Below are positions 31,701-50,192 of a stretch of DNA of 64,000 nucleotides, in pieces. The position numbers were made by a program, and so were the translations under genes. Under the pieces are notes generated by a model, which did not search any database, was not told where the DNA came from, and worked only from the letters and a program-made list of their open reading frames with translations. Every line of letters starts with the position of its first letter. Position 1 is the stretch's first letter. The DNA comes from an uncultured bacterium (GTDB lineage: Bacteria; Patescibacteriota; Saccharimonadia; UBA4664), in assembly GCA_963720265.1 (NCBI GenBank), contig CAVRET010000001.1:325916-389915 (forward strand), written 5' to 3'.

Positions 31701-33103
31701 CATACAGCTCAAATAATGGGACCTCTAGTACCTCATCTTTATCGGCTTCTTCAGCACCTGGGCAGGTTGTGTTCGATTATCTGGTTGTTTCAGCAACAGC
31801 CTCCACTACGCCCGCGACGACTCAATCGGGCCAGACGATGCTAAGTAGTGTCACCGACGCTGCTACGAATCTTATCCAGTTTGCCGACAGTGATAGGGCT
31901 GCGTCTTTGTCGAGTGGTAACACCACAATGGGTTGGAATAGTATGGCCAATGCGGGTGCAAACGGTTGGGTTGAGTCGTCTATTGGTCTTAATTCAACCA
32001 ATACGAACGTATCTGAAAACGTGACCTCCGCGGTCGCAAGTATAACCAACAACTGTACGGCTACGGGTAGTGGAGACAGCATCTGTGCGGATGCCTCGAA
32101 TGTGCTTAAGTTGAACCAGCAGTACTCGAATGCAACGGGTGCGGAGTTGCTGCTGCAGAGTGCAGGCACCGGTGACATGCTCGATACAGAAAATGCTGGC
32201 GGTACGATTCTTGACAAGATTATGGCTAATGGGAGTATCGTGATTGGGCCTTCCGGTGGAGGGTATACGCCGGCCACATTAACACTCGGTACTGGAACCG
32301 GCGCTGATCCAGCAGGCGTGGCCGGGGCCATGTATTACAATACAGCGCTTGATGAGTACCGGTGCTACGGCGACAATGGCGAGTGGTCACCATGCGGAAC
32401 GCTGCCGATTGATGCTAGTTATGATTTAAATGAAGACTTTTTGGGCGGGTCGGCGGTCGCTACAACAGCCACTACCGGCATCGGCAGTAATAACTGGACT
32501 GTGACAACGATTGGTACCGCCTGCACTTCGCTCGGCTATGGTGGCAGTGGCGGGCAGTACTTGGTTAGTGCTGCCAGGCCCGGGATATTGACTACGGCAA
32601 CATCCGCCACGAGCGGTGCCGGATGTACGGTGGCACTGGGTGGTGCTGCCGACATGAAAGTGGGGGCCGGGGAAGACATAAAGGCGTCGGTGGGGGTCAG
32701 TAGTGCTTCCGCCCATATTTACCGTGTGGGACTTCTGACTGAAACTAATTCGGCCACTGCGCCCAATTTCGGTGTGTGGTGGGAAGCCGACTCCGGTTCC
32801 GGCCACGCTGGCGCCACCGACTGGCAGTATTGCTACGGGACCGGGTCAGCTGTTACCTGCGGGGATAGTGGTATTGCTATTGGTACGCTGATATGGTATA
32901 GACTTGAGATTCAGATCGTAAGTGCCACGGCTATTAACTACTACATTAATGGCACACTGAAGCCGGTAACAGGCATTACTCTCGGGACGAGTACTGCAGT
33001 TGGTCCTGATATCGTTTGTGCCAATGACACCGGTACGGCTACGGCATTTAGCTGTAATACCGACTACTACCAGTTACGTGCGGATGATGGGGCGCTCAGG
33101 TAA
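19724..33103 (+). CDS. Giant secreted modular surface protein, 4459 aa from the GTG start (alternative ATG at 19775).
   Basis: Uninterrupted 13.4-kb ORF. N-terminal signal peptide (MRLTLIGVGLLLGSLAMLVPSTSKA). N-domain is paralogous to that of 34911..49142 (NFQGRLLTAAGAVVPDGSYNIEFKLYKNG ... KNGYFSVQLGSITALPS ... PMKQLGAAPYAINAANAN). Ten or more TAFQVQNASG-type punctuation motifs. Jelly-roll/CBM-like modules (YTYSIWVRAD...WQRFSVT...YAWGAQL). A Kelch-like propeller at 29.9-30.8 kb. A lectin-like C-terminal domain. Confidence 0.85.
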   Translation: MIYRSGIRRINKSVLPRMRLTLIGVGLLLGSLAMLVPSTSKASSSSVNGTINFQGRLLTAAGAVVPDGSYNIEFKLYKNGNGQSAGDSGGSPAGSLLWTEDWVYGTGSPDNRVVVKNGYFSVQLGSITALPSNLSLDESNLWLSMNIENPTGATLQCTGFSSNSPTGCSGGDGEMTPMKQLGAAPYAINAANANQVNSYGLSNNFLDLAAPSGISAANGSAGSVPGTVCYTVTATNANGETVATNNSGTVTPGGTHVVNVTWSQVTGATGYKIYRNTSCSFTSGSLFLTTITSGSITTYQDTATSTSAGLPPTTVTGGTVDIQAWSSQTSNLLQLQNSSGTNVLSVDPSGDTTVAGVITVAGGAAQDITTAGAATATAITIQPGTSSTASTGATLNLQGGNDSGTSGVTAGTVAIQGGNATGASGTRNGGNVTIDAGTGANANGSITIGGTASGTNTTGVTVNVATDATASGKTDTINIGTGNGAGGSGTAKAVNIASGTPGGTEINTVLIGSLANASTTTLQGGTSGTGIALTTGSGGTIALTAAGAGNVTVTATNASLNSSGVLNVVGGSAGFNIGGSTTTGNYLRNNGTNFVSSAIQYGDIPTCGGTCNYIGNQITTQSNANFNIKSAASSSVGGAIQGATSQTADLFDLRDSTGANLLSVSAAGNQELGGYEDVSGMGGFGSFGNLLLQSEALDQTGDWTASNITVTANNTVAPDGTTTAEKLAATVSGTHSMTQICTTGCTTNSVTYTYSIWVRADAANNPTNVQLRIDWNNGSGQTGTAATFSATTTWQRFSVTQAVSASGMVSVTPTLLVSTNSVTVYAWGAQLNLGSTPGVYEQTVLSQIIAGEGEALNGYLTIVSPSNGGITRIDGYGNMSLAGQLTTGDMATLNTYTTSDSALQAVQVGSGFTVPTAIIDGGTSPGAGADLLQLQSNGTPVARFNNAGNLFVASAINTQTGGGTLSVQTTGNGAITTGSGLLTDGGNLTVQGTTTTLGATGSANTLGFANTTAATGATIDFASTSVGIGNSLTVQGQTGAATDAGGAVNVYGGTGGTTGGGGLVTIQGGAASATSGSAGGGVDIYGANGTGTSTGGAGGSVAIQAGNGTSSGNNSGGNVTLQAGSASGSGATGSVVVKNAANSSTALQLQDTAGVDVLDGSTSTTNLVSQPDITGSTASSWAVKNGSSAPVGDTSNPYETTSSIKTVASGSTAYSGMQTSTFTSALVPNDYYQLTFWAKCSGTIGTFTFGRQDVSGTDINYTTTTCNTTWQQYWATWQAGGTLTSPNIYIDAGTPANATTIWVDGVTLNQVGGLATGPSNYQPGTVYIPGVIGSPVTFENSANSAGAFQVQNSAGANILNVNTSTSTVTVGSSGNDNVSLAVDNTDGTAAIEVRSGGSASYDTFVGVNSGANNALNVGSTQGYQNTGFGNGALQSNSTGSYNTGLGVYALNANHSGSDNTAVGNGALNVMNGGSDDDALGFQSQYDNSSGSYNVSIGSYSQYYIGGSDNTSLGYHSLTNSSDTTGADNTALGYNAASTDSASGFVSDLNLQNATAIGYDSEVQANNSFILGGQGSNAVNVGIGTTIPLNTLSVSPANYSTGTAEIASTGTTVTGSGTTWTNAMVGMQFIFMNGETGTITAVASTTSLTISASQAATGGFINYRIQTPGFNVTSNGAAFIQATNSSAFAVQNAQGESDLVANTTDSTNFILDSDMVLNSGTSLVDWSAVSSATVTQNTTPTDSYLGNTSMNLTTTNASSGQGATTTAFTPSLPTGSGTVYTVSFEAMMSTGTYAASNLKMIATGGGTPSCTGSASETINANGFQQVSCTWAADSGTISGLSILDQTANAMTMYIDDVQLQTGTAATAFNLGTLQLKGVITSPVAVQNVVNSTTALQVQNASGFNVLTVDTLDNSGQGQVILGAASHNNGALVFDNSTNSNTVSLVSGATSGSGYSLTLPTSGPTYNQCLQTGNSSTTQLQFGPCATANANLTKVAESDEHSGNALTFTPSKIGDEIVLFYSSTTASVTVSAMNTTSGTGVTTWTKVTSATGTKGDVDMWMGQVTGTGSTTVTATVTGSPSTFELTQIEYTTSGVSSGTVWQMTNSNTNYITVATTTVTWPSFVAPASQEAYVGYDSNVGGTPSTSGTGPFTYTLTGANNMWVYDSSTVYGSTYAPTTTVASSFPETIGGLLIAYNPSSISNSTATQVANFNVQAATSGSVAGLLQANAAGSGDILDLENGSGNLVDNVTSNGVLQVQSASGVNVLTADNTIDAVTLGGAAAPSYVNEWEANSTSGYPTISAFSPTTIGDVMVVAIKTVPGNKVTSVTDTDVSAWHYVTYNNGNVHEELWYGTITSTASTTMTFNSISGTPCTAGVSCEIVAEEFTAGLGANTNWFATTSNTTTTGSPSSTISFPSLKATVTNGLYWGFAYSGGTAGSCITGGFTCLTTPKGNDVIYDPTMVNGTTYSPTANNTSNVYDTLGMILVASTSNLNVVGTTQLNGAVTSPVVFANSVNSATAFQIQNASGADAFLVDNTNSGLVQSDDTLQIGPGSPGTTTPKFLYLSDVTSNGAGNPLIIGQWNSPGNWGIGPNSNANDNTLRLGVTTANGVNTWSTTQNVSLLVAGTLAVQPTSGNDSTSAFQVASSAGTNLVNVDTANGNVNLGISSSTPALGDTAGSGTADTVYANTIHAGRFQASYTGPITSISAYVGQGGLDGTNKLYQVALYTDTTCFGHQCPGTYIASSAQGTLSGSATWDTAAVSATVTAGTYYWLAYTSNSTITNDNTLSYNTAAAGSLDEETGFTFGSGPSNGFPTTFVYQPPQAGYSYSIYATYGSGYATTINSSGTLTQNAAAVFKDETSSATALQVQNTDGESVFQTGTTQAVDGITNYVADSEFALGSGACPLTDWSVVGSPTTCAQNTTAANSYEADTSLQLVTTASAGQGASTSTFTATPTTTSSGQGSIWTVSFYAEQTSGTTPITGANLTAATTGVVSSNTCTINGSTSTPLSATGFAQVVCTLTYSSGGNITGLTIETSGTVTADTIYLSNVQYQVGTATTGFVTAPQIGQLSLRGVINTPIEMQNNANSSTAFQIQNAGGNALVDVNSNNVNINTTSVNGTGLSTVNSAKEWSVLESTTVVANPATNSYTWTNGVSPHTVGNVMVMGIGIASTTFSVSSITGGGVTNWHKITANAPGTTDHTELWYGTVTSAGTTNVVINFSGTVNVPTELINQEFTAGLGAGTNWSVTTSGQQSNGSSTSMTFPSLTSGANGGIYVGYGNEAANNATVGTSPGFTFEPTPTNLDMYLYNPSLAANTVYQPIAGITGAAVSNVTGAILTASADNTFSTNGSTVVGGAASQTAFQVQNASGGSVFNVDSSNNIISLESGYSGTIGSWQPDTNSLPAIMGTGAAVAANGYVYEESGSNNGTVNGDLYSAKLNPDGTVGTWSAALTVPSTPVKFEATVATNGYIYELGGTNNGGTDQSTVQYAQILPNGTLGAWSTTTVLPALTSRAAAVAANGYIYVIGGDTAGGTTGSTIVYYGKVNADGTISNWTTGGALTAASRDIQAVYANGYIIAAGGGDGTNAQTTVQTSAVPAAGGANGAFSTTGDTALTGGRAQATMGVANGYVYVVGGRNTDSTNAPQTSTYYGQLNSAGQIGSWSSVSTADALPIPVFGHSMVTVNGYMIIMGGFNSSGTLVSGVYTATTARIAVDASLDLVGSSSGTLADGGDQSTGSSGGSLTAGNTNIVGSLQVADQADFNSNISVDGNLVQDGDSYENSSQTTGTAFTLTDSSLTTGTLATFTTGTSTTNLTSGNLVNVATVSAVQSAGSLVNVSNTANLVTSAGSDAANLVNVSRSLTATISGGTSNVPTVDPAGTGTGPESLNNTTGTNSWSNNFTVASHSNEILLVQVGYIATSCANYHLTSVTYNGTAMTLLSYNQMTNDCVGFYYLLAPTTGSAKALIVNSTASDNFTENISAWYNVNQTTPFTTVGGGAYSSNNGTSSTSSLSASSAPGQVVFDYLVVSATASTTPATTQSGQTMLSSVTDAATNLIQFADSDRAASLSSGNTTMGWNSMANAGANGWVESSIGLNSTNTNVSENVTSAVASITNNCTATGSGDSICADASNVLKLNQQYSNATGAELLLQSAGTGDMLDTENAGGTILDKIMANGSIVIGPSGGGYTPATLTLGTGTGADPAGVAGAMYYNTALDEYRCYGDNGEWSPCGTLPIDASYDLNEDFLGGSAVATTATTGIGSNNWTVTTIGTACTSLGYGGSGGQYLVSAARPGILTTATSATSGAGCTVALGGAADMKVGAGEDIKASVGVSSASAHIYRVGLLTETNSATAPNFGVWWEADSGSGHAGATDWQYCYGTGSAVTCGDSGIAIGTLIWYRLEIQIVSATAINYYINGTLKPVTGITLGTSTAVGPDIVCANDTGTATAFSCNTDYYQLRADDGALR

Positions 33104-33113
33104 TTAGGGTATG

Positions 33114-33719: not shown

Positions 33720-33818
33720 GCTTACTAGATTACACGAAATGGCGGGCGCGGCCAGTGGCGGAGTTTGGACGGCTTTAAGCGTAAGGAGTATATTCAGAAT
33801 ACTAATGTGAGGTGAGGC

Positions 33819-34547: not shown

Positions 34548-34682
34548 GCCTTGTGGCGTTGAGCGCTTGCAGCGACTTAAAGCTCTGTGGCAGTGCCTCG
34601 GCTTGTTTCTTGGTGAAGCTTGAAATGTTGGGTATGTGCATTGGTCACCTGACTCCATAGCGGCATAGGTAAAAACTGCGGC

Positions 34683-34712
34683 AACAGCCCGCCTGAACCG
34701 GCGGGTCTTTGC
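34683..34712 (+). terminator. Intrinsic terminator after 33819..34547.
   Basis: cccgcc-tgaa-ccggcggg hairpin followed by tctttgcttttg. Confidence 0.55.
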
Positions 34713-34833
34713 TTTTGAAAAGTGTGTTGTGTATTTTGCTAGTTGATTTGTGTGAATTTCTAAAAACCAGATATGGGCGTGATTGTGCAACATGACAATT
34801 ATTCACACAGTTTTCGATGTGATGAAAATGCCT

Positions 34834-34910: not shown

Positions 34911-37900
34911 GTGAGGAATTGGTCTCTGTACGGCGCTAGAACAAGTCGCCACGTTGTCCAAAACATGCTACGCATCTCCCTGGCTTTCGTTGCTGTAGGG
35001 CTTGTTTCGGTCTCGCTTTTGACAGCGGGCACAGCTCGCGCTACCTCAGGCACGATTAATGATACAATGAATTTCCAAGGGCGACTGCTGACGGCGGCCG
35101 GGGCAGTGGTGCCGGATGGAAATTACAACATTGAATTCAAGATTTACAAGAATGGTGACGGGCAGTCGACTGGGGACACAACCGGGAGCCCGTCCGGGAC
35201 GCTTTTGTGGACCGAGGATTGGCTTAATAACAACTCCGTAACGGCTAATACCATTCCTGTGGTGATCAAGAACGGCTACTTTTCGGTACAGCTGGGCTCG
35301 ATTACGACACTACCGAGTACCGTTACCTTGGACGAGAGCGTGCTGTGGCTGTCGATGACGGTGGCCGGTAGTGCGGGCGCGACCTCGACGAGCTGTACGA
35401 CGTTTTCGGCCTGTAACTCATCAGGTGAGCCGGAAATGCTGCCAATGAAATCGCTGTCGGCGGCGCCGTATGCGATTAACGCAGCTAACGCCAATACGCT
35501 GGGCGGGCTCACGAGCAGCCAGTTTATCCAAAACACCACCTCGCCGCAGTCGAGCGCGAACATCGACATTGCGTCCGGGAATGCGGCGGATCCGGCGGCC
35601 AAGCTTCAGCAGGCCTCGTCGGCCACGGCGCCGGTGCTCACACTGGAACTTGGCGGTTCACCGGGCGTTGGCGGCGATTTGCTCGATTTGCAGGACTCGA
35701 GCACTGCTGTGCTGGATAAGTTTGATTCGAGTGGGAATCTGACGCTTGGTAATAATTCCAATAAAACGATTTCGGTGGCGCCGGCAGCTTCTGGGGGCGG
35801 CAGCAGTCTGACACTCATGGCCGGTAATGGTGCGAGTGGTACAAATGCCGGCGGTAACCTGATACTTGAGGCGGGCGCCTCCACGGGCGGTGCGGCCGGC
35901 GGCAGCATTATTGTGAAGCCGCAGACTGATTCCACGACTGCTTTCCAGGTGGAGAATGCCTCAGGAGCTGCTCTCCTTACCGCTGACGCTGCTAACACTG
36001 CCATTGTTTTAGGCCAAGACACGACACCAACCAACCTAACGGTACGTGGTGGTATCGCATCCGGATCGAACGTCGGTGGCGGTAACATCACCTTCCAAGC
36101 TTCCAATGGTACGGGTGCTGCCGGTTCAGGGTCATTTGTCTTCCAGACCGCAGCTCCGGGCGGAGGTATTACGCTTGATAATACATCGTACACGGGTGGC
36201 AGCGGCAATATCACACTTAGCTTCACGACCGGCAGCGGTAGCAATCGATTGCTCATGGTACAAGCCGAGACCAATGCTAGCCGGTCCTTCAGTGGCATAA
36301 CCTACAACGGTGTGTCGATGACGCAAGTTGCCACTGAGAATTCTCTGACCAATGACGATGGCGTTGGGGCTCATGTGGAACTCTGGTATCTCGTGAATCC
36401 TGCCAGCGGTACCCATAACATCGTTGCTACCATGGTCGGTTCAGGTGCCGGTTCATTGGCTGCCGCCAGTTTTACTAACGTCAATCAGACGACACCGCTC
36501 GGCACAGCCGCGACCGGGAATGGTACGGCTTCGGGGACGCAGCAGAGCAGCCTGTCAGTGGCGACCTCGGCCGGACAATTGGTGATTGATGGGATTGGCA
36601 CTGACGTGCCGAGTTCAGGCGTGGGTGTTGATAGCCCGCCGGCCAGTGGCCAGACGCAATTATGGTATTCGGCCAATTCCCCCAGCCTTTATGGCGCCGC
36701 TGGATCGACGGCGCCGGGTACTGGTTCGACGGTATTCATGAAGTGGAACGTCACGAACGCTGACTGGGCCGATATCGCGGTTCCCATTAACCCGGCCTCG
36801 AATTCAACGGCCGATACTCTGAACAATGACCTGGTGATCGCAAACAGCGGGAACGTCGGGATCGACAACTCTAGCCCCCAGAATACGCTCGATGTGAGCG
36901 GCACGGCGAGGGTGCAGTCAACCACAAACTCGGCGACGGCTTTCCAAGTGCAGGATGCGAGTGGTTCAAGTTTGCTTGATGTCGATACGGCCAATACGGT
37001 GGTAAATGTTGGTACCGCCGGAAGTACCGCCGTCAATGTGGGCGGCACAGCGGGTTCGATTGGGCGAACTTCGATTGGGTCGGTACAGGATGTGGGTGCG
37101 AATAATCTGATCGTCGGTTATCAATATACTGCTCCTTCGACCGGAAGTATTGGCTCAATGTCGGCATATATTGGCGCAAACGTTCAGTCATCACCATACA
37201 ACCAATATCAATTTGCTTTGTATTCAGACAATGGCAGTAACGCGCCAAACGCGTATTTGGCTTCGTCGGCGGTCGGGACGGAGGCCGCGAATACCTGGAA
37301 CACCTTGCCAATCTCGTACAGTGTCACTTCAGGAACCAAATACTGGCTGGTTATGTGGACGAATACTACCAACTCAGCGGACAACGCGCCAAACGGAGAC
37401 ACTAATGTAGCGAGTTCATATGTTGCTTATACCACTGGCCAGACTTTTGGCAGTGGACCCGATAACGGTTTCCCCGCCACATTCCCTACGCCAACGTACG
37501 ACGCCAGCCAATACCCCGATAGCGTATATGCGAGCTACAATAGTACTTCCGGTCCGGCGGTGACCGTGAGCTCGACAGGTACTCTTGGTGTATATGGTTC
37601 GGCCATATTTGAGAGCGGCAGCGATTCAACCACCGCATTCCAGATCCAAAACGCCAGTGCCGCGAGCCTGTTTAATGTGGACACTTCAAACGATGTAGTC
37701 GACGTTGGCGCTACCGGAACCACAGGTCCGTCCACGACCGTCAATATTGGGACATCGTCGAATGCTGCTCAAACGGTAAACCTTGGGTCGACGGACGGCG
37801 CCAGCGCTACTACCATTCAGGGCGGTACTGGCAACGTGTCCATTAACACCGGAGCGGGTTCTGGCAGTACCGGCTCGATAACCGTCGAAAGCGGCAATTC

Positions 37901-40900
37901 ATCGGGCGGTGATTCGGGCAACATTACTGTCGATACCGGCACTAATTCGCCGGGCGGAACAGTGGTTGAGGACGACACGTTTGAGGGCAGCGGGACGGGT
38001 AGTGTTGACGGCTACACGAACAACGATTCGAGCGTAACGCCGACGGCCAGCAACACGACCGCTCACGGCGGCAGTTACAGCTTGAAGCTGACTGAGGCCG
38101 GGAGCTACTGGTACGCATTCAACGCTGGAACTCAGTCTGTCACCCCGGGCCATGTGTACGCGTTCTCGGCGTGGGTCAAGGCCGCTAGCACCAGCGAGAC
38201 AATGTCTGGCTATCTTTACTGGGCTTGTGGCGATGATACGTATCACGCTTGGGGATTCGCGACGGCCGTGTCGTCGGGTTGGACGCAAATGACCGGGACG
38301 CTCACGGCGCCGGCTGTGAATTCCGGCTGCAGCCCAGGCACTGAGACGGTGTCGATGGGTATTACGGACAATACCTTTGGTGGTTCGAGCGGCGAGATTC
38401 AGTACCTGGACGACGTGACCGTGACAGATGAAAGCTTGATTACTGAGCCATCGGTTGATATCGGTACTTCGAATGCGCAGGCTGTTAATATTGGCGGCAA
38501 CAACGCTGGCCAGTACGGCCCCACAACAGTTGAAGGCGGCGGGGGCATTAGTTTACTGGCAGGAACCGGCGCTTCGGTAAACATTGGCACTTCCAACTCG
38601 AATAATGTGACGGTTGGCGACGCCTCAGATATAGACTCGACGACGCTGCAGGGTGGAACGCTGGGAGTGTCCATTAACACGGGAGCGCAGTCTGGCACCA
38701 CCGGCGCGATTACCCTTGAATCGGGCAACTCGAGCGGCGGCGATTCCGGCAACGTCAATATTGACACCGGCACCAACTCGCCCGGCGGCACGCAGGTCCA
38801 GGACGACACGTTTGAGGGAAGTGGGTCAGGTAGTATGGACGGCTACGATAACAATGACGACGGCTTGAGTGCTATTTCGGCAAGTAATACCACTGCCCAC
38901 AGCGGCAGCTATAGCTTGAAGGTGACCGAGAGCTCGGCGTACTGGTTTGCAAATACCAGTGAGGACACAACCGTAACATCGGGGCACGTGTATGCCTTCT
39001 CAGCTTGGGTGAAAGCTGCCAGCACGGGGGAGTCAATAGATGCCAATGTGTACTGGGGCTGCAGTATAGGTGGCATTGTCCAATGGGGGTCAGCCACTTC
39101 CACTTCGTCCGGCTGGACGCAGATCACCGGTACCGCGACGGCGCCGGCTTTGTATCCCGGCTGCATCCCCGGTGACGAATTCGCGCAGCTTACTTTTGGT
39201 GGCATCGCCGGCACCAGCGGGCAGATCGAGTACATAGATGATGCGACGATAACAGATGAGAGCTCAATTACTGAGCCGTCGGTAAATATCGGGACATTGA
39301 ATGCGCAGGCCGTGAACATAGGCGGCAACAACGCTGGCCAGTACGGCCCCACAACAGTTGAAGGCGGCGGGGGCATTAGTTTACTAGCCGGGTCCGGCGC
39401 CCCGATAACCATTGGTACAGGCAACAGCAACAACGTGACAGTCGGCGACGCCTATGATGAAGACGCGACCACGCTGCAAGGCGGCAGCAACGGAGTGAGT
39501 ATCAATACCGGCGACAATTACGATGGTACCGGCTCGATCTCGATCACGACCGGAAATTCTACCAGCGACACGGCTGGCAACATTACCATTGATACCGGAA
39601 CGAGTACGTTCAGTGGGTCGCAGGTGGAGGACGACGACTTTGAGACTGGGACGGATACCTTTGGCTGTTGGTTTGGCTGCGTATCAGCCACCCAATCGGC
39701 GGCGGAGGCCCACGGCGGTTCCGACAGCTTGGCGGTGGCCGAAGATGGCAGCGGTTCGTGGGGTGTGATCGAGGGCTACCCTGGCGTGGCTGCCACCCCG
39801 GGACATGAATACGCCTTTACCGCCTGGGTGCGGGGCACGGCGGCGGAGACGGTTAGCGCCGACGCTTTTTTCCCAGGTTCCGTTGGCCCCGGTGACACCT
39901 ACGACACTGTGACCGATAGCACGAGCGGCTGGACTGAACTTACCGGCGATATGACTGCTCCGGTAGGAGCAACTAACGTATATCTTGGCTTCACCGGTGG
40001 CACCGCCGGCGGTGGGGCGACGGATTACATTGATGACATAACGATCACTGACCTTGGCACAGTTTCGGCGCCAAACATCGCAATTGGTGGGACTAATGCC
40101 CAGCAAGTCACCATCGGCAACGAGAACGAAGGCGGCTACACGAGTATATATGGCGGCGGCGACGGCATTTCGCTTCAAACGTCAAACGGCGGGACCGTTG
40201 CGCTCGGTACGGTAAACCAGTCCAATATTAGCATCGGCGCCGTTGGCAGCAGTACTGAAGATGACGTGGTGCAAATCGACGACACGTCGGGTGGCGGTAC
40301 GAGTATCGTGGACATTGGCGGCACCGCGACTAATGACGGCTCGGATACCGCCAGTACGGTTAACATTCAAGGTGGCCAAACCGGTCTCGTGGTAGCCAAT
40401 GCCGGTGCCACCCTTCAGACCTACACCGATTCCACTACCGCCTTACAGGTGCAAAACTCAAGCGGCGGCGATGTTCTAAACGTCGATACAACCGATGGCC
40501 AAGTCACAGCCGGTAACACCAATACTGCTCGAGCGGAACAGGAATGGGACTCGCACGGTACAAACCAAGCGACACTATCCGACGCGCCTCAGGCTGATGG
40601 CGATTTGCTGATGCTGGCCGTATCGATACCTTCGACCTCAGTTACTGTCTCGTCGGTGTCCGGTGGCGGCGTGAGCAGCTGGAGCAATGCGACTTCGTAC
40701 ACCGACAGCACGGTTGGTTACCGCACCGAGATTTGGGAAGGCACGGTGACCGGCGCCGGCGCCGGTACTATTACGGTCAACTATTCTTCAACGCCGGGGG
40801 GTGGTTGTGAGCTGGCCGCGCAAGAGTTTAGTGCCGGTGTGGGTGCTGGTTGGTCAGTTGTAGCCACTGGACATGCCGTTAATTCTTCGTCGACGACCGT

Positions 40901-43900
40901 CACATTCCCGTCGTTAACTGCTACTCAGACCGGCCAAATGTACTGGGGATACATGGGTGCCGAGCGTGTTGGGGCGGCCGGCAGTTACCCCGGTTTCTCG
41001 TACGTTCCTACCGGCTACCAGAATGTCATTGGCTACGATACAGATTTAGCTGAGGGTACGGTGTACACTCCGACAGCGTCCCAGTCGCCGGCCGGCACTT
41101 CGCTTGGCTCGGCGGTCATAATTTCGGTCACAGACGGTAACGCCCTGACGGTGAATGGGGCGGAGACCATTACCAACACAAACTCCATCAACGCCTTGCA
41201 GGTGCAAAACTCCGCCGGCACCAGCCTGCTGGGCATTGACACGGTTAACAGCCAGGAAACCATCGGCACCTCCGACACCACCACCTTCGGCAACACCTAC
41301 GATGCGGCTACCGCTCCCGAGGGCGGATTTGGCGCCGGCTACTACTGGGATGGCGTAAGCCAACAGGAACTCGTAGCGCAATCGTTTACGACTGCCGGAG
41401 GCGGGCCCTTATCTTCACTTTCGACTTATGTTGGCACCAACGGCATATCGAGTACCAACAAGCTTTACCAGATGGCAGTGTACTCTGACAACGCCGGCCA
41501 GCCGGGAACGTACATTGCGTCAACTGCCGTGGGCAATCTTGGTTCGTCAGCCGGTTGGAAAACCCTGCCCATTACGGCTACCTTGGCGTCGGACACGACC
41601 TATTGGCTCGTCTATTGGACGAACGTGAATGACAACAACAACAACGGTCAGGATATTATCAACACCTTGCGCGGTACATCCAATACCCAAATGTGGGGCA
41701 CTTATGAAAACTGGCAATGCTCGAGTGGTTGCGGGTCTAGTACCAATGGTATGCCAAATACCTATCCCACCAGCGGCAACAATACTACCAATGGCACCAT
41801 CGCCAGCATATATGCCACGTTCGCGAACAACTTGCCGGCATTGCAGATTGATTCCGCTGGCAATAGCATCCAGGATGGCACCGCTTTGTTCCAATCCCAA
41901 ACTGACTCTGACACCGCCTTGGTCGTCAATAACGCCGACGACCAGCCGGTACTGCAGGTGGCCACCACATTCAACGGCGTGGGCGTAGACTGCTCGCCGG
42001 ACGGGAACTACAACTTGACGGTGTGCGCCGGCGGCAATGGTAACGGCGGTGGTTTGTCTGACCTCGGCTATTCGTACCAGCTGCTGAACGTCCAGAACGA
42101 TGGCAACACATATTTGGGCGTCGACAGTATTAACGCCGATGTTCAATCGGGTGATTTGTCAGTAGGCAACTCGGTGAATAATCTCAACGGCCCCGGACTG
42201 TTGGTAAGCGACAACTTCGAGAGTGGGAACTTCAGCCTGTGGAGTGGCGGCTCATCCGGCGGTGAGTCCGTAACTACGTCTGAGGCTCACAGCGGCCGAT
42301 ACTCGGCCGAGACCAACGTGTCGAGCTCCACCGGCTATGCGCGTACCAGTTTCTCTTCTACCTCCACGACGTTTACTCTCAATGCCTGGGTCTGGGCACA
42401 CGTACTGCCAACGTCGGGTGAACTGCCATTGTTTACCTTGTACCAGGCGTCCACCCCAACCAACAAAGTCCAGCTGTACACGGATCAGAATGGATGCCTT
42501 GGCGTTATAAATGGTACGACCGACCTTGGCACAGACTCGTGCGGAACCTTTATTGGCGATGATGATTGGAACAACATCGCCATATCCATAAATCGCACTA
42601 CCGGTGAGATTGCACTCTACGCCGGCCTCGGTTATATGTACTACGGAGCTCAGGGATCAGACTATACCGGCCTCACTATCGGCTCGGGCTGGGACACGCT
42701 GGATATGGGTGTCACAAGCAGTAACACGGGGCAGTACTGGGTTGACGACCTGGCGTTTGGCACCGGCATTACGCCTTCTCTGGCCAACGGCCTCACCGTG
42801 CAAGATTCGCTTCACGCCAGTGGTAGCGCTACGTTCGGCGGCCAGGTTTTGGTGCAGCCGGCGTCGAACTCTGCCACCGCCTTCCAGGTCCAGAATGCCA
42901 GCGGCTACAGCGTATTGAGTGCCGACACTTCCAGCAACTCGGGGCAGGGCCAGGTGGTCTTGGGCAGTTCCAGCAATAATAATGGGACGCTGTTGTTTGA
43001 TAATTCGGCCGGTTCGAGCCAGGTGGGACTAGCTGTAACGTCGTCGAATACCAACACCTACACACTCGACCTGCCGATTGCCGTGCCTAGCACAAACCAG
43101 TGCCTGTTGTCCGGCTCAAGCACGCCGACACAGTTGACGTTCGGGTCGTGCGCTAGCGGGAGCGCGGGCATCAACAACCAAACCACGACCCAATCGAACG
43201 CCAACTTTAACATTCAATCGGCCGGGGCAGCGGACGTGGGCGGTGTTATTCAAGGTGCCAGCTCACAGACGGCCGACTTGCTTGACCTGCGCGATTCGGC
43301 TTCCGGCAACCTGGCAGTGGTGAGCGCGGCCGGCAACGAGGAGAGTTTGGGCTACATCGACAACGCCGGCATTGGCGGGATTGGCCAGTATGGAAACCTA
43401 CTGCTTGACAGCGAACAATTGGACCAAGGCGGCGTGTCGACGCCGCCTTGGTCGACCAACAGTGCGTCGTTGGTAGTAACTGCCAACAATACGACGGCAC
43501 CGGACGGCAATACCACAGCCGAGAAGCTCGCCGGTACTGGAAACGTGAACATTTCGCAATCTGAATCAACCTCCGCTGTCGCAACCACGTACACGTTTAG
43601 CGTGTGGTTGAAGCAGTCGAGTGGGGCGGGCACTAGCGGCTTGTGTATTTACAGCACCGCCGGCACTCCGTCGAGCTGTACGGCTACCGCGGTAACGCCC
43701 AATTCCACCGACTGGCAGCGGTTTAGCGTAACGCAAGCTGTAACCGGCAGCCCAACGGCGATTACGGCGGAGATTTTGCCGGGCAACGGCTCAACGGCCA
43801 CGATTTACGCCTGGGGCGCGCAGCTGGTGGTAGGCACGACTCCGGAAGTGTACACCCGCACTACGGCGGCGGCTGTTGCGGCTTCAAGCGGTGTGGTGAC

Positions 43901-46900
43901 GAACGGCGGTGTACTCATTAATAGCCTTAGCTCGAGCGACACCCCGGTTACCGTTAATAGCAGTACCGGCGTGAGTACGCTCAAGATTGCGGACAGCGGT
44001 GCGACAACGTTTAAATCGTCGACCAATTCCACCACCGCCTTCCAGATACAGAATGCATCAGGTGAGGCTTTGCTTACGGCCGACACTACCAATACGGCAC
44101 TAGTTCTGGGTCAGGACAATACGCCCACCGATCTCACCGTCCGCGGTGGCGCCGCCAGCGGGCCAAATGTGGATGGCGGCGACATTACCTTCCAAGCTTC
44201 TAACGGCACTGGTGCTGCCGGCTCTGGTTCGCTCATCTTCCAAACTGCTCCGCCGGCCGGCGGGGGTGTTACCGAAGACAATTCCGGGACCTCAACCGCC
44301 AGTGCGTGTTCAACAGCCACCCTTAGCTTCACTACCGGATCCGGCTCAAACCGCTTGCTGCTCGTCGGAGCCGAAACCGGCGCCGGCGAGACCTACACTG
44401 CCGTGACCTACAATGGTACCAGCATGACGCAGCTGTCAACGCAGGACAGCGGGACCACGCACATTGAGCTGTGGTATCTGCTAAACCCTGCGTCAGGGGC
44501 GCATAACATTGTTGGCACCCTATCATCGACCCTGCATGGCTGCACGCTCGACGCAGTCTCATATGCCAACGTCAACCAAGTAACGCCGTTTGGTACGGCT
44601 GCCACTAATAGCGGCACAACTACGGGTTTGCAATCCACGAGCAATACCGTCAGCACCACCAGCGCTGCTCAAGTGGTGTTTGATGTTTTGGGGGCAGACG
44701 TCAGTGAGTCGATTGCACCCGGATCGGGCCAGACACAATTAGTAAACTTCCCGGGCACCGGGGGCTTCTACCCGCTGGGGGAGTCCAGCGCTCCGGGCAC
44801 GGGCGCCGCCGTTAACATGAATTGGGCCGTTAACTCGGCCGATTGGGCCGACATTGGCGTACCCATCAACCCGGTTGCCAATTCCACCGCCGACACCCTG
44901 CAAACCGTTCTGGATCTGGCCAACACGGGTAATGTCGGCATCGACAATTCCAACCCTCAGGAAACGCTCGATGTCGCCGGTACCGCCAATTTCCAGAACA
45001 CCACCAACTCCACCACCGCTTTCCAAGTGCAGAATGCGAGTGGCGCCAACCTCTTGACCGCCGATACGACTAACAACCAGATCCTGCTCGGCTCCGATAC
45101 CAACCTGATCCTCTCGGGGACCACCGCCTACATATCCAACCCTCAGGGCTATGGCGACAGTGAGGCTTTCGGAGCTGGTGCGTCGGTCACCTCGAGTAAT
45201 GCCACCGCCGTCGGCTACAATGCTAGCTCCTATTATGATGGGGCAGCAGTCGGGGATAATGCGGCCGCGGGCGGCTATGGCGTTGCACTTGGATACGATG
45301 CTGCCGCCACCTATGTAGGCACAGCCGTCGGCTCGGAATCGGATGCATCTGGGAACTACAGTACGGCGGTCGGTGGTGGAGCAGTCGCAGGGTCAAATTA
45401 CGCGACTGCGTTAGGCTACCTGGCAGCCGCTAACTCGGCTGACAGTATTGCGCTGGGCGCCGGATCTGTTACTAGCAGCGCGAACCAACTGGTTATTGGC
45501 AGTTCCACTGCCAATGGCGCCTATATTCAAGATGCCTACATCGGTTCGGGTATATCGGACATTGCGCCGCAGAGCATTACCGTGCACGCCACCGGCGGCA
45601 GTGGCAGCAACGTGGCCGGTGCCAACCTTAGCCTGGCCGGGGGTATCGGCACCGGTAATGCCAACGGCGGCAATATTAATCTCCAAGTTGCCAAGCCGGG
45701 GGTCAGCGGCTCGAGCGCTAATACGCTTGCAACCGTTGCATCCATCAGCGGCCTCAATGGCTCAGCGTTATTCCAAAATTCCACCGACTCCACCGCGGCT
45801 TTCCAAGTGCAGAACGCGAGTGGCACAAACCTGTTGGGCGTCGATACGTTCGACAGCACCGTGAGTCTAGGAGAAGCCGGTTCGGTCGGCGGTTCCGTGT
45901 ACGGTAAGACGGACATCGGCGGAACGGCGGGCTTCGGCTACTACGATGGCACCAGCGATGTACTTGCCGCCCAGCAGTTTAAGGCCACTGGAGGCGGTAC
46001 CATCTCGTCGCTGTCAACCTACATTGGTATGGTCAAATCTTCGCCGAACAACCAGGGCCAGATGGCAATCTACGCGGATAACGGCAGTAACGCGCCGGGC
46101 AGCTACATTGCATCCACAGGCGTCCACACGCTCACGGCCAACAGCTGGAACACCTGGTCAATAACCGACGGCACCGCCTCGTTGACAACAGGTAGTGAGT
46201 ACTGGCTGGTATATTGGACAAATGACGATGCCATTGATGGGGACAATGCACAGTACCTTGATACAGGCCAAGCCGGCCAGTTAGGGTACCTTTCCGACTA
46301 TGGGTCAGGCGTTAGCTTCGGCACCGGGCCCAATAACGGCATGCCGGCGACGATCCCTGGCGGAACTGTGCTCTCGGGTGCCTACTTCAGCATCTATGCG
46401 ACCTATGGCGGCTCGACTGCCGTACCAGTTACTATTGGTGCTGACGGCAGTGTGACGGCGCTTGGGGCGGCCACGTTCGGAGATTACCTAGATTCCACCA
46501 CCGCCTTCCAGGTGCAGAATGCGGCTGGGGCCAATCTGCTCGGTATCGACACCTCAGGCGACAATGTTAACGTCGGCTCTACGGGATCCACGGCGCTGGC
46601 CGGTACTATCAACGTCGGCACCTCCACCGGTGCGGCCCAGACCGTCAACGTCGGCTCAAACGACGGGGCATCGGCGACCACAATTCAGGGCGGCACCGGC
46701 AACGTCAACGTACTTTCAACTGCGAACATTACTCTGGGGCAGACCAGTACCAATGCCGGCGGAACGCTGGGCTATACCGGTATTGGTTCCAACGGGAACG
46801 GTTGTAGCGGAGGTTGTAATATTACAGCGTCGATGTTTACAACCACTAGTGGCGGTACCGTTGGGACAATGTCGGTGTACGTTAGCTCCCCGGCCTCGGG

Positions 46901-49142
46901 CGATCATTACCAATTTGCCATCTATAGTGACAATGCCGGGTCGCCGAATACCTACATTGCGTCATCCGCTGTGGGTACCCTCACTTCGGTCGCGGGTTGG
47001 TACACGCTGCCCATTACAGCGACACTCGCACCCAGCACCACCTACTGGATAACGTACGCTGATAATAGTGGAAATGACGGCATTAATTACAATAGCGGCC
47101 CGGCCGGTTATTATGTTTGCAATACCACGTTCACTTTCCAGAGCGGCCCGGATAACGGTTTTCCGGCCTCCTACCCAGGGGGTGGCAGCTGTTATCCAAC
47201 CACCCAGGCCAGCATTTATGCAACTTTCAGTGGTGGTACGCAGTCGGCAGTAACGATTAACAGTCTCGGCAACCTCACCGATACCGGTACGGCCAACTTT
47301 GAGGATACAAACGATTCCACCACCGCTTTCCAGGTGCAAAACTCTTCGAACGCGGCGGTGCTGAATGTGGATACGACGAATCAGGCGCTTAGTGTGGAGG
47401 CGTCGAACTCCTCAAGCACCACGCCGACGCTTAATGTAATTCAATCGGGTACCGGCGACGCCACGCTTTCGATACAGGATGCGGGGGCGAATTTCTACCA
47501 AGGCGTAAATGCCAACAATGGCAATGCCTTCACGATTAACTCCCAGTACGCTGCCACGCACAACTCGGATCTGGGTGAAGATTTCGAGTCCAGCGTGCCA
47601 AACGGCGATGACCAAAACTCCAGCTGGGCTGAGGCAACCGAGTTTACCGCCAGTTCTACCGGGACAATGTCGTCAATCAATGTGGCCTTTGATAGTCGAA
47701 TTAACTCCAGCAGTGTATTTTCGGTCGCTGTTTACTCAAATAACGCCGGCGCACCGGGTACGCTGTTGGGTTCATACAGCGGCACCCAGGTGATTCAGGT
47801 TCCGAACCCGGGGACGCTAAACATCAACTGGAATAACATTACACTGAATTCACCGGTGAGCGTCACGAGCGGTACGATCTATTGGCTCGCCTTCCAGGTG
47901 AACGACTCTTCAACGTTTGATGGCATTACTACTGGCGGTTTAAGCGCGTATCGGAGCGGCATCACCCCCGGGACCTGGGCTAACTGGAGCAGTATGGGCA
48001 CGAGCCAAGGCAATAGTACGGTTATAAACGGCGTGTATGCGGTGATTGATTCCAGTACATTGAGCGATACGTACGCAAACGGGCTGTTTTCGCTATCAAC
48101 GGCGGGTGCCGCGACGTTCCAGGGTGTTGCCGACTCGACCTCGGCTCTGACAGTGAAGAATGCGTCGGGCATACAGGTACTTAATGTCGATACGGCCAAC
48201 AGCAGCATTACGGTTAATAGCGCGGTAAACTCACCGGTGGCGTTCCAGGTCCAGAATCAATCAAATAACGACATTTTGACGGTTGACACAACCGATTCAC
48301 GAGTGGAAGTGGGTCCGAGCGGCGGAGGCACAACCGCTACATTATTGGTGCTGGGCATAAAGACCAGTTCCGGCGACCCAGCCGGTGTGACAGGGGCGAT
48401 GTATTATAACTCGAATACGGGTACATTCCGGTGCTACCAGAACAGTGCGTGGGTGAACTGTATTGCCACCGGACTTGGATCGTACCAGGTGCTCACCAGT
48501 ACCTCTGCCAACAGCACCTATACCACACCGGCCAATACCAAAGCGATTATGGTTGAGATGTGGGGTAGCGGTTCGGCGGGTGGTGGTGGCGGAGGCACTA
48601 CGGGTGATGGAGCTGCCGGTGCAGGGGGTGGGGCCGGTGGATACGCCCGCAAGGTTATCGTGGGTCCGGCCTCAACCTATAAGTACACGATCGCGGCCGG
48701 CGGTACTGCAGGTACAGCGGGTAACAACGCCGGTAACGCTCCGGGTTCCGCGAACTGTTTCGGTACCAACTCGACCGCTTGCAGCTCGCCGATTATTAGC
48801 TGCGCCGCCTCCACAGGCGGCGCCGGCATGGCCGCCGGTACAACCAATGCGGGGAGTACCGGCGGAGCCGGAGGCGCATGCACTGGAGGCGATCTCAACA
48901 CTACCGGGGCAGCGGGGCGAAACGGCTCGAGATGGTCTCAGACCGTGGCCCTATCGGGAGGTGGCGGAGGTACCCTCTTTGGTGACGGCGGATCTGGTAT
49001 TGGGCTGCAAGGGACCGGTATTACCGCTGGTAGTACCGTCTACGGCGCGGGCGGCGGCGGGGGCGTAGTGATCAACAGCGCTACTGCTACGGCCGGAGGT
49101 GCTGGGGCACAGGGCGTGATTATCGTTTGGGAATTTAAGTAA
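34911..49142 (+). CDS. Giant secreted modular surface protein, 4743 aa (alternative ATG start at 34965).
   Basis: Uninterrupted 14.2-kb ORF. Signal peptide MLRISLAFVAVGLVSVSLLTAGTARA. N-domain paralogous to giant 1. Three tandem ~276-aa CBM4_9-like modules (DDTFEGSG...AHGGSYSL...GHVYAFSAWVKA...SGWTQMTG...YLDDVTVTDE) carry a 66-bp perfect DNA repeat. Ancient internal duplication of an ~330-aa segment. 14 or more punctuation motifs. Gly-rich C-terminal tail. Confidence 0.85.
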   Translation: MRNWSLYGARTSRHVVQNMLRISLAFVAVGLVSVSLLTAGTARATSGTINDTMNFQGRLLTAAGAVVPDGNYNIEFKIYKNGDGQSTGDTTGSPSGTLLWTEDWLNNNSVTANTIPVVIKNGYFSVQLGSITTLPSTVTLDESVLWLSMTVAGSAGATSTSCTTFSACNSSGEPEMLPMKSLSAAPYAINAANANTLGGLTSSQFIQNTTSPQSSANIDIASGNAADPAAKLQQASSATAPVLTLELGGSPGVGGDLLDLQDSSTAVLDKFDSSGNLTLGNNSNKTISVAPAASGGGSSLTLMAGNGASGTNAGGNLILEAGASTGGAAGGSIIVKPQTDSTTAFQVENASGAALLTADAANTAIVLGQDTTPTNLTVRGGIASGSNVGGGNITFQASNGTGAAGSGSFVFQTAAPGGGITLDNTSYTGGSGNITLSFTTGSGSNRLLMVQAETNASRSFSGITYNGVSMTQVATENSLTNDDGVGAHVELWYLVNPASGTHNIVATMVGSGAGSLAAASFTNVNQTTPLGTAATGNGTASGTQQSSLSVATSAGQLVIDGIGTDVPSSGVGVDSPPASGQTQLWYSANSPSLYGAAGSTAPGTGSTVFMKWNVTNADWADIAVPINPASNSTADTLNNDLVIANSGNVGIDNSSPQNTLDVSGTARVQSTTNSATAFQVQDASGSSLLDVDTANTVVNVGTAGSTAVNVGGTAGSIGRTSIGSVQDVGANNLIVGYQYTAPSTGSIGSMSAYIGANVQSSPYNQYQFALYSDNGSNAPNAYLASSAVGTEAANTWNTLPISYSVTSGTKYWLVMWTNTTNSADNAPNGDTNVASSYVAYTTGQTFGSGPDNGFPATFPTPTYDASQYPDSVYASYNSTSGPAVTVSSTGTLGVYGSAIFESGSDSTTAFQIQNASAASLFNVDTSNDVVDVGATGTTGPSTTVNIGTSSNAAQTVNLGSTDGASATTIQGGTGNVSINTGAGSGSTGSITVESGNSSGGDSGNITVDTGTNSPGGTVVEDDTFEGSGTGSVDGYTNNDSSVTPTASNTTAHGGSYSLKLTEAGSYWYAFNAGTQSVTPGHVYAFSAWVKAASTSETMSGYLYWACGDDTYHAWGFATAVSSGWTQMTGTLTAPAVNSGCSPGTETVSMGITDNTFGGSSGEIQYLDDVTVTDESLITEPSVDIGTSNAQAVNIGGNNAGQYGPTTVEGGGGISLLAGTGASVNIGTSNSNNVTVGDASDIDSTTLQGGTLGVSINTGAQSGTTGAITLESGNSSGGDSGNVNIDTGTNSPGGTQVQDDTFEGSGSGSMDGYDNNDDGLSAISASNTTAHSGSYSLKVTESSAYWFANTSEDTTVTSGHVYAFSAWVKAASTGESIDANVYWGCSIGGIVQWGSATSTSSGWTQITGTATAPALYPGCIPGDEFAQLTFGGIAGTSGQIEYIDDATITDESSITEPSVNIGTLNAQAVNIGGNNAGQYGPTTVEGGGGISLLAGSGAPITIGTGNSNNVTVGDAYDEDATTLQGGSNGVSINTGDNYDGTGSISITTGNSTSDTAGNITIDTGTSTFSGSQVEDDDFETGTDTFGCWFGCVSATQSAAEAHGGSDSLAVAEDGSGSWGVIEGYPGVAATPGHEYAFTAWVRGTAAETVSADAFFPGSVGPGDTYDTVTDSTSGWTELTGDMTAPVGATNVYLGFTGGTAGGGATDYIDDITITDLGTVSAPNIAIGGTNAQQVTIGNENEGGYTSIYGGGDGISLQTSNGGTVALGTVNQSNISIGAVGSSTEDDVVQIDDTSGGGTSIVDIGGTATNDGSDTASTVNIQGGQTGLVVANAGATLQTYTDSTTALQVQNSSGGDVLNVDTTDGQVTAGNTNTARAEQEWDSHGTNQATLSDAPQADGDLLMLAVSIPSTSVTVSSVSGGGVSSWSNATSYTDSTVGYRTEIWEGTVTGAGAGTITVNYSSTPGGGCELAAQEFSAGVGAGWSVVATGHAVNSSSTTVTFPSLTATQTGQMYWGYMGAERVGAAGSYPGFSYVPTGYQNVIGYDTDLAEGTVYTPTASQSPAGTSLGSAVIISVTDGNALTVNGAETITNTNSINALQVQNSAGTSLLGIDTVNSQETIGTSDTTTFGNTYDAATAPEGGFGAGYYWDGVSQQELVAQSFTTAGGGPLSSLSTYVGTNGISSTNKLYQMAVYSDNAGQPGTYIASTAVGNLGSSAGWKTLPITATLASDTTYWLVYWTNVNDNNNNGQDIINTLRGTSNTQMWGTYENWQCSSGCGSSTNGMPNTYPTSGNNTTNGTIASIYATFANNLPALQIDSAGNSIQDGTALFQSQTDSDTALVVNNADDQPVLQVATTFNGVGVDCSPDGNYNLTVCAGGNGNGGGLSDLGYSYQLLNVQNDGNTYLGVDSINADVQSGDLSVGNSVNNLNGPGLLVSDNFESGNFSLWSGGSSGGESVTTSEAHSGRYSAETNVSSSTGYARTSFSSTSTTFTLNAWVWAHVLPTSGELPLFTLYQASTPTNKVQLYTDQNGCLGVINGTTDLGTDSCGTFIGDDDWNNIAISINRTTGEIALYAGLGYMYYGAQGSDYTGLTIGSGWDTLDMGVTSSNTGQYWVDDLAFGTGITPSLANGLTVQDSLHASGSATFGGQVLVQPASNSATAFQVQNASGYSVLSADTSSNSGQGQVVLGSSSNNNGTLLFDNSAGSSQVGLAVTSSNTNTYTLDLPIAVPSTNQCLLSGSSTPTQLTFGSCASGSAGINNQTTTQSNANFNIQSAGAADVGGVIQGASSQTADLLDLRDSASGNLAVVSAAGNEESLGYIDNAGIGGIGQYGNLLLDSEQLDQGGVSTPPWSTNSASLVVTANNTTAPDGNTTAEKLAGTGNVNISQSESTSAVATTYTFSVWLKQSSGAGTSGLCIYSTAGTPSSCTATAVTPNSTDWQRFSVTQAVTGSPTAITAEILPGNGSTATIYAWGAQLVVGTTPEVYTRTTAAAVAASSGVVTNGGVLINSLSSSDTPVTVNSSTGVSTLKIADSGATTFKSSTNSTTAFQIQNASGEALLTADTTNTALVLGQDNTPTDLTVRGGAASGPNVDGGDITFQASNGTGAAGSGSLIFQTAPPAGGGVTEDNSGTSTASACSTATLSFTTGSGSNRLLLVGAETGAGETYTAVTYNGTSMTQLSTQDSGTTHIELWYLLNPASGAHNIVGTLSSTLHGCTLDAVSYANVNQVTPFGTAATNSGTTTGLQSTSNTVSTTSAAQVVFDVLGADVSESIAPGSGQTQLVNFPGTGGFYPLGESSAPGTGAAVNMNWAVNSADWADIGVPINPVANSTADTLQTVLDLANTGNVGIDNSNPQETLDVAGTANFQNTTNSTTAFQVQNASGANLLTADTTNNQILLGSDTNLILSGTTAYISNPQGYGDSEAFGAGASVTSSNATAVGYNASSYYDGAAVGDNAAAGGYGVALGYDAAATYVGTAVGSESDASGNYSTAVGGGAVAGSNYATALGYLAAANSADSIALGAGSVTSSANQLVIGSSTANGAYIQDAYIGSGISDIAPQSITVHATGGSGSNVAGANLSLAGGIGTGNANGGNINLQVAKPGVSGSSANTLATVASISGLNGSALFQNSTDSTAAFQVQNASGTNLLGVDTFDSTVSLGEAGSVGGSVYGKTDIGGTAGFGYYDGTSDVLAAQQFKATGGGTISSLSTYIGMVKSSPNNQGQMAIYADNGSNAPGSYIASTGVHTLTANSWNTWSITDGTASLTTGSEYWLVYWTNDDAIDGDNAQYLDTGQAGQLGYLSDYGSGVSFGTGPNNGMPATIPGGTVLSGAYFSIYATYGGSTAVPVTIGADGSVTALGAATFGDYLDSTTAFQVQNAAGANLLGIDTSGDNVNVGSTGSTALAGTINVGTSTGAAQTVNVGSNDGASATTIQGGTGNVNVLSTANITLGQTSTNAGGTLGYTGIGSNGNGCSGGCNITASMFTTTSGGTVGTMSVYVSSPASGDHYQFAIYSDNAGSPNTYIASSAVGTLTSVAGWYTLPITATLAPSTTYWITYADNSGNDGINYNSGPAGYYVCNTTFTFQSGPDNGFPASYPGGGSCYPTTQASIYATFSGGTQSAVTINSLGNLTDTGTANFEDTNDSTTAFQVQNSSNAAVLNVDTTNQALSVEASNSSSTTPTLNVIQSGTGDATLSIQDAGANFYQGVNANNGNAFTINSQYAATHNSDLGEDFESSVPNGDDQNSSWAEATEFTASSTGTMSSINVAFDSRINSSSVFSVAVYSNNAGAPGTLLGSYSGTQVIQVPNPGTLNINWNNITLNSPVSVTSGTIYWLAFQVNDSSTFDGITTGGLSAYRSGITPGTWANWSSMGTSQGNSTVINGVYAVIDSSTLSDTYANGLFSLSTAGAATFQGVADSTSALTVKNASGIQVLNVDTANSSITVNSAVNSPVAFQVQNQSNNDILTVDTTDSRVEVGPSGGGTTATLLVLGIKTSSGDPAGVTGAMYYNSNTGTFRCYQNSAWVNCIATGLGSYQVLTSTSANSTYTTPANTKAIMVEMWGSGSAGGGGGGTTGDGAAGAGGGAGGYARKVIVGPASTYKYTIAAGGTAGTAGNNAGNAPGSANCFGTNSTACSSPIISCAASTGGAGMAAGTTNAGSTGGAGGACTGGDLNTTGAAGRNGSRWSQTVALSGGGGGTLFGDGGSGIGLQGTGITAGSTVYGAGGGGGVVINSATATAGGAGAQGVIIVWEFK

Positions 49143-50186: not shown

Positions 50187-50192
50187 CGTGTA

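Follow-up and report, generated by a model that had tools for sequence, protein, structure and literature searches.

We examined two giant genes in a 64,000-nucleotide stretch of contig CAVRET010000001.1 (the window; assembly GCA_963720265.1, from an uncultured bacterium of the Saccharimonadia) and find that the proteins they encode, giant 1 and giant 2, are most likely paralogous modular fibres of the Saccharibacteria cell surface. We put at roughly 60% the probability that they are host-binding fibres, anchored at the N-terminus, with tips that are exchangeable over evolutionary time. This reading is carried by a conserved junction module near the C-terminus of both proteins, by the distribution of that module among relatives, by the identities of the tips that follow it, and by the breakpoints of mosaic relatives, in which one tip gives way to another. 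Both tips are of domain kinds that phages place at the distal, receptor-binding end of their tail fibres.

A shared junction and two different tips

The two proteins had been predicted to share a GAMYYN...RCY...W..C junction close to their ends, and this junction is real. In giant 1 it reads GVAGAMYYNT...YRCY...W..C from residue 4198 (nucleotide 32315) and in giant 2 GVTGAMYYNS...FRCY...W..C from residue 4492 (nucleotide 48384). BLASTP aligns the two segments (coordinates in Table 1) at 47% identity over 64 columns (E 4e-10), the sole similarity between the C-terminal halves of the two proteins, and in a tblastn search of the six frames of the window each junction matched only itself and its partner (E 5e-13 and 7e-13). 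The consensus is LLVLG..DP.G..GAMYYN..(F/Y)RCY..W..C, with two invariant Cys; in an AlphaFold2 model the giant 2 copy forms three short beta-strands (MYYN, TFRCYQ and AWVNC), where the predicted local distance difference test (pLDDT) score is about 67-72. After the second Cys, 235 residues are left in giant 1 and 226 in giant 2, and these C-terminal tails, expected from the outset to be unrelated, gave no match to each other by BLAST or tblastn.

The original prediction described the end of giant 2 as a low-complexity, Gly-rich tail resembling those of actinophage tail proteins. The likeness to actinophage tails holds, but low complexity does not: on profile matches and a predicted structure, tip 2 is a folded Gly_rich_2 domain. 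It matches PF21722 (Gly_rich_2) at 37.6 bits (cut-off 24.3; E 3e-9), covering positions 3-223 of the 226 in the profile, and the tail family PHROG 863 at E 4e-21; its AlphaFold2 model, built from a 30-sequence alignment, has a pLDDT of 87. A Foldseek search of PDB with this model returned as best matches the tail tip of mycobacteriophage Bxb1 (E 1.4e-7) and the fibre of cyanophage Pam3 (E 3e-6), each with a probability of 1.00, and next, weakly, the glycine-rich domain of ALK. Predicted viral structures gave 225 matches at E<=1e-3, the top one at E 2.6e-19 with a template modelling (TM) score of 0.70; many of the matched proteins bear the name of a tail fibre or of a glycine-rich domain. In Pam3 the glycine-rich domain makes up the distal part of the fibre and is proposed to bind the receptor (PMC9608196). 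P0004, the closest relative of tip 2 without a junction, is encoded on a phage contig and flanked there by capsid-type and Collar-domain genes. Its alignment to giant 2 begins just past the junction Cys, which fixes the domain border. Neither tip matched NCBIfam, and neither gave a tblastn match in 50,697 cultured phage genomes; in the latter search the Gly-rich tip is probably masked by low-complexity filtering.

A word-based search with tip 1 found only one relative, and clustering of the sequences that follow the junction revealed a family of C-terminal domains of about 220 residues that includes it. Eleven of 20 aligned family members match PF22237 (SO2946-like_C; best E 5e-38) and four match the ConA-like Laminin_G_3 model. 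The family profile matches PDB 2a5z (E 8e-4), and a hidden Markov model (HMM) of the family, from which giant 1 and its close subgroup had been left out, recovers residues 4232-4459 of giant 1 at 75 bits (E 3e-25). By these profile comparisons tip 1 is a divergent SO2946-like member, and the lectin- or jelly-roll-like character first ascribed to it is a reasonable reading, its lectin side being borne out by the family. Tip 1 had no match in PHROGs. A search of the cultured phage genomes (tblastn) with the tip of P0193, a stronger member of the family, found phage Pan5, in which an SO2946-like domain is likewise C-terminal in the 973-residue protein gp18 of this Pseudanabaena phage, adjoining a short-tail-fibre gene. 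In the Shewanella prophage LambdaSo, SO_2946 itself adjoins the tail fibre gene; its annotation is that of a lambda-phage protein bearing a carbohydrate-binding module (PMC4112983). An Arg ends 35 of 40 SO2946-like tips (alignment A4), including those of giant 1 (33098-33100) and PDB 2a5z (...SATR); in P0249 the chain runs on for about 500 residues past this Arg.

Table 1. Positions of the giants, their parts and neighbouring features in the window (aa, amino acids)
Feature	Position	Strand	Length	Description
tRNA-Thr	17452-17526			
Tailspike-like protein	17654..19642	+	662 aa	BppL_N, DUF5907 and pectate-lyase beta-helix (Pfam)
Giant gene 1	19724..33103	+	4459 aa	From open reading frame list and translation; signal/anchor, conserved N-terminal domain, long Gly/Ser/Thr/Ala/Asn-rich stalk with Kelch region, junction, tip 1
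Giant 1, conserved N-terminal domain	19844..20323	+		INFQGRL...YNIEFKLY...LWTEDW...AAPYAINA
Giant 1, junction	32207..32395	+		aa 4162-4224; conserved C4214 and C4224; ends at second Cys
Tip 1	32396..33100	+	235 aa	Divergent SO2946-like C-terminal domain by profile comparison, ConA-like lectin type
Giant gene 2	34911..49142	+	4743 aa	From open reading frame list and translation; signal peptide, N-terminal domain, stalk with three CBM_4_9 modules, junction, tip 2
Giant 2, conserved N-terminal domain	35031..35510	+		
Giant 2, junction	48273..48461	+		aa 4455-4517; Cys 4508 and Cys 4517
Tip 2	48462..49139	+	226 aa	Gly_rich_2 domain; predicted TNF-like sandwich with stacked Gly-rich loops
tRNA-Tyr	49949-50034			
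tRNA-Thr	50112-50187			

The junction family and its tips

A junction profile of 68 positions, made from six copies, was searched against 1.84 billion cluster representatives (clustered at 50% identity) and matched 2991 of them at E<=1e-3 and 1563 at E<=1e-10. The junction is thus a common protein module, of about 3000 such clusters, and an undescribed one, with no match in Pfam, NCBIfam or PDB: against PDB sequences the profile gave only chance matches to the 'G.YRCY' motif of Ig domains, and a Pfam search of ten small relatives left the junction without a match except for weak NHL-repeat look-alikes. Of the 80 best loci in GTDB species genomes, most have record titles that name Saccharibacteria or other Patescibacteria. 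About 12 of the 80 are titled otherwise (Gammaproteobacteria, Pseudomonadales, Bacillota, Binatia, or only 'bacterium'); either these bins are wrongly labelled or the module does occur beyond Patescibacteria. In the IMG/VR contigs L001 (1411-3105) and L002 (2935-4650) a related motif, DP.GVEGxMYYNT..N.(F/I)R.Y.G..W, was seen at the very C-terminal end of a 564-residue protein and the very N-terminal end of a 571-residue tail-fibre-like protein; short hairpin versions may be connectors in phage fibres too.

The original prediction treated the motif as specific to tips, a view that its distribution along relatives overturns. Relatives carry 1-13 copies (local recount), and in small relatives the junction is the second half of a repeat unit of about 110-140 residues that opens with an FQVQN motif. 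Internal copies are followed by one stalk family in 244 of 381 internal segments; because they lead on to stalk, the junction is a general stalk module, of which the last copy carries the tip. That last copy lies within 250 residues of the end in 91 of 150 relatives. In the two giants the GAMYYN half occurs once each, directly before the tip, and the FQVQN half recurs in both: a 78-nucleotide unit of this type (..NSTTAFQVQNASG..L..DT) is present in 14 DNA copies, 2 in giant 1 and 12 in giant 2.

It is possible, if rather unlikely, that there is nothing more to the junction than this, namely an ordinary stalk repeat inherited by two paralogues whose C-termini differ by divergence or domain accretion. 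Such an account accommodates the repetition of the module up to 13 times, usually with stalk behind it, and its place in the FQVQN-headed unit; it also agrees with the modest identity of the giants' junctions to each other (47% of amino acids, 57% of nucleotides) and with the window itself, where tblastn with the junctions and both tips found no orphan tip cassette, the search for which had been suggested, and no other stray copy. It fits poorly with the mosaic pairs found among relatives. These pairs are 57-81% identical over the 250 residues upstream, remain similar through the junction in most cases, and fall to background after the second Cys. P0189 and P0238, for example, share about 80% identity over 450 residues up to ...FRCY and 76% in the junction, and about 23-25% in the tip; P0193/P0208, P0152/P0197, P0234/P0251 and others have the same pattern. 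Tips 65-80% identical to each other occur on stalks with no detectable similarity, many tip classes were seen solely after the last junction copy, and the Gly_rich_2 tip has its closest relative in a phage protein that has no junction, all of which tells further against simple inheritance of a repeat. Because identity drops abruptly after the second Cys and similar tips sit on unrelated stalks, tips appear clearly to have been replaced at the junction among these relatives.

The range of tips involved was surveyed in the 150 best representatives and in an independent set of genome loci (61 open reading frames with a stop inside the locus). Together, 159 non-redundant tips fell into 34 BLAST clusters, of which 10 have at least three members, and several of the C-terminal domain classes that follow the junction have no Pfam match. 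The class of tip 1 is one of the two largest, with 40 members, and that of tip 2 is rare, with 3; among the 61 genome-locus reading frames the rough counts are 14 with an SO2946-like tip and 1 with a Gly-rich tip. Terminal junction copies are about 49% identical across tip classes, and the last 8 junction columns track the class of the tip (34% identity within classes, 17% between).

A class of about 146 residues shares first place with the SO2946-like class (40 members each) among the tips that follow the junction in relatives. It has no match in Pfam or PDB and is represented in the window by a gene other than the giants. Residues 526-660 of the tailspike-like protein (about 135 residues, nucleotides 19229-19633) match the HMM of this class at E 1e-12. 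The protein, which starts MSRLPTPGGDDGSWGNVLNDFL and has no signal peptide, is encoded between tRNA-Thr and giant 1. One pool of end domains is therefore used on at least two kinds of scaffold.

P0003, a close relative of the end of giant 2 (57% identity), was considered as a stand-alone tip cassette and rejected: it is the terminal part of a larger gene that a frameshift interrupts. On the JGI contig that carries it (L086), P0003 comes after a stalk-like reading frame which lies in a different frame and runs into a stop codon, as expected if a giant gene had suffered a frameshift, or been misassembled, and not of a free-standing cassette.

Several points weigh against reading the giants as host-binding fibres with exchangeable tips. 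In many relatives the internal junction copies lead back into stalk, and the module is not dedicated to tips. Tip classes are 'unrelated' in the sense of having no BLAST similarity, and some may be remote homologues; the tips of P0189 and P0238 share faint motifs. The class frequencies are rough, as multi-copy proteins are over-represented in the top-150 list and the genome loci were collected with a single strict peptide pattern. The giant 1 tip itself matches no Pfam family even at E<=1, and its AlphaFold2 model, from an alignment of 2 sequences only, has a pLDDT of 34. There is no sign of recent exchange or conversion between giants 1 and 2, given the identities at their junctions. Finally, surface display, orientation, oligomeric state and a role in adhesion or host recognition are properties that we infer.

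The lack of recent exchange also bears on how tips would be replaced. With 57% nucleotide identity at the junctions, a longest exact match between the two genes of 23 nucleotides (in the N-terminal domain) and no orphan copies, the exchange is evolutionary, with no active local switch; the swapping of tips at a conserved junction that was first proposed finds its support in the mosaic relatives and not in a recent trade between the two giants. Switching on site, by cassettes or by a diversity-generating retroelement (DGR), was rejected, since the window was searched for DGR-type repeats and none were found.

Chromosomal setting of the giants

The giants are chromosomal genes of a Saccharibacteria (Patescibacteria, or candidate phyla radiation [CPR]) cell, not phage genes. 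Their flanks hold the cellular genes holB, rluD, trkA, rpoA and secY, plus four tRNA genes, and the RpoA encoded in the window is 82-83% identical to Candidatus Saccharimonadia proteins. The probable true start of giant 1 is an ATG near 19775 (MRLTLIGVGLLLGSLAMLV...), which gives it an N-terminal signal/anchor, and that of giant 2 lies near 34965 (MLRISLAFVAVGLVSVSLLTAGTARA), which gives it a signal peptide. Besides the junction, the only clear similarities between the two proteins (BLASTP) are the N-terminal 190 residues, at 58% identity, and one internal block of 230 residues. The conserved N-terminal domains are 64% identical by tblastn over the window, with 77-81% DNA identity in their best-conserved stretches, and are taken to be the cell-proximal end. 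The same domain stands no more than 150 residues from the N-terminus in 71 of 150 junction-bearing relatives.

This setting bears on the proposal that the region is the remnant of a prophage or tailocin and the giants its tail-fibre genes, which we regard as very unlikely. Both tips are of phage tail-fibre domain types, the gene directly before giant 1 is tailspike-like, and tRNA genes flank the 17.6-49.1 kb block, all as a prophage would have it. The flanking reading frames that were scanned (several of them without a Pfam match), however, contain no capsid, portal, terminase, tail-tube, baseplate or integrase family, and those that can be identified include the cellular genes named above; a search for att-like repeats at the flanks found none. 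The giants open with signal peptides and a domain found across Patescibacteria, not with a virion or baseplate attachment region, and the strict junction peptide pattern is rare in viral contigs, with 3 loci in 2.9 million compared with 137 loci in genomes. We give almost no credence to a further alternative, that the giants are polymorphic toxins of the contact-dependent inhibition (CDI) or Rhs type with a pre-toxin junction and immunity genes downstream, for the resemblance (very large secreted proteins with a conserved motif before a variable C-terminus) is formal only, the tips are of binding type (Gly_rich_2, SO2946/ConA-like) and not toxins, giant 1 is followed by a convergent gene for a small membrane protein and giant 2 by tRNA genes with no co-oriented gene of immunity size, and neither orphan tip copies in the 64 kb nor matches to VENN, Rhs or filamentous-haemagglutinin families were found.

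Both giants are poor in Lys, Arg and Glu and rich in Gly, Ser, Thr, Ala and Asn. A family profile search placed a Kelch_1 match in the stalk of giant 1, and giant 2 has an internal tandem duplication (37836-39511, about 830 nucleotides, 76-78% identity) that covers its CBM_4_9 modules. Between the two genes, a 450-residue reading frame (33114-34466, minus strand) is probably over-called, being protein-like only in its last 190 or so residues (from MIKRFIPE...), with one transmembrane stretch, and about 1.2 kb upstream of giant 2 (33.7-34.9 kb) has no obvious gene. Downstream of giant 2, a 330-residue reading frame (49156-50148, minus strand) overlaps the tRNA-Tyr and tRNA-Thr genes, has no family match and is most likely spurious.

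Proposed function and comparison with known systems

Taking the giants as anchored host-binding fibres, we propose that the signal/anchor and the conserved N-terminal domain would hold each fibre at the cell, and that a stalk of thousands of Gly/Ser/Thr-rich residues, punctuated by FQVQN-type units and by carbohydrate-binding or propeller inserts, would carry a single globular domain at its far end. The last junction copy would act as an adaptor for alternative C-terminal binding domains. The tip may then contact a surface ligand on a host bacterium, probably a glycan or a lipid, so that two tips could confer two specificities. Over evolutionary time tips would be replaced by recombination, with the breakpoint just after the second junction Cys. 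A stronger version, in which Saccharibacteria and other Patescibacteria carry such giants as 'cellular tail fibres' with tips from the domain pool of phage receptor-binding proteins (possibly exchanged with phages of the epibiont's own hosts), these tips set host choice, and the GAMYYN/RCY module is a universal adaptor and recombination point, we consider unlikely.

How ultrasmall epibionts choose and attach to their hosts is an open question, for which these giant fibres are concrete candidates. Genetic work has placed surface adhesins among the essential genes for the epibiotic growth of Saccharibacteria and left the specificity determinant unsaid (PMC10633639, PMC11665869). Among the papers available for searching, none was found that links Saccharibacteria with tail-fibre-like proteins. 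The junction family would offer a fixed adaptor and a catalogue of interchangeable ends, including at least two domain kinds that phages use for cell-surface recognition, and the class of tip could be compared with host range across genomes.

Among known systems, the CDI (CdiA) and Rhs toxins likewise have a short conserved motif (VENN or PxxxxDPxGL) where a constant body meets a variable C-terminus; the motif of the giants differs from these, their tips are not toxins, and they have no immunity genes or orphan cassettes. Giant adhesins (for example RTX adhesins such as MpIBP, LapA and SiiE) reach from an anchor near the cell, along an extended middle part, to domains that bind ligands at the distal end. 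The giants resemble them in overall logic, with an anchor at one end, a very long repetitive extender and carbohydrate-binding modules towards the far end. Unlike these adhesins, they show neither an RTX or type-1-secretion signal nor Ig-like repeats in the extender, and their tips are of phage type; the Saccharibacteria lineage has no outer membrane.

Mosaic phage fibres offer a parallel in organization. The T-even proteins gp37/gp38, fibres of the P2 and Mu type and R-type pyocin fibres combine a conserved proximal part with exchanged distal, receptor-binding parts. As in these fibres, a conserved segment in the giants' family gives way abruptly to unrelated C-terminal binding domains, and the breakpoints of mosaic relatives fall there. 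The giants, in contrast, are cellular and about ten times longer, their junction is a different, uncurated module that also occurs inside the stalk, and no invertible or duplicated tip cassettes lie near them.

The tips themselves have counterparts of their own. Tip 2 shares its fold and the PF21722/PHROG 863 match with the glycine-rich domains of phage fibre tips (Pam3 gp24, PDB 7ypx/7yfw; Bxb1 tail tip, PDB 9d93 chains Qa/Qb), and in giant 2, as in those proteins, the domain is the extreme C-terminus of an elongated protein. Giant 2 differs from them in being a chromosomal protein of 4743 residues with a signal peptide and no phage module, in being followed by tRNA genes and no chaperone-like gene, and in sharing only 20-23% sequence identity with the solved proteins. 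The family of about 220 residues that includes tip 1 matches the SO2946-like domain (PF22237; 2a5z; SO_2946 of LambdaSo; Pan5 gp18) in profile comparisons, the conserved C-terminal Arg included; the phage examples lie in tail-fibre regions, and the giant 1 sequence is too divergent for the Pfam threshold.

Both giants fit into an uncurated family of Patescibacteria fibres, built of the N-terminal domain, FQVQN units, a GAMYYN junction and a tip, with which they share a junction close to the C-terminus (226-235 residues from it) and the common N-terminal domain after a signal sequence. A conserved junction with exchangeable tips is a principle known from phage fibres; what is new is its occurrence in giant chromosomal fibres of Patescibacteria, with an adaptor that had not been described.

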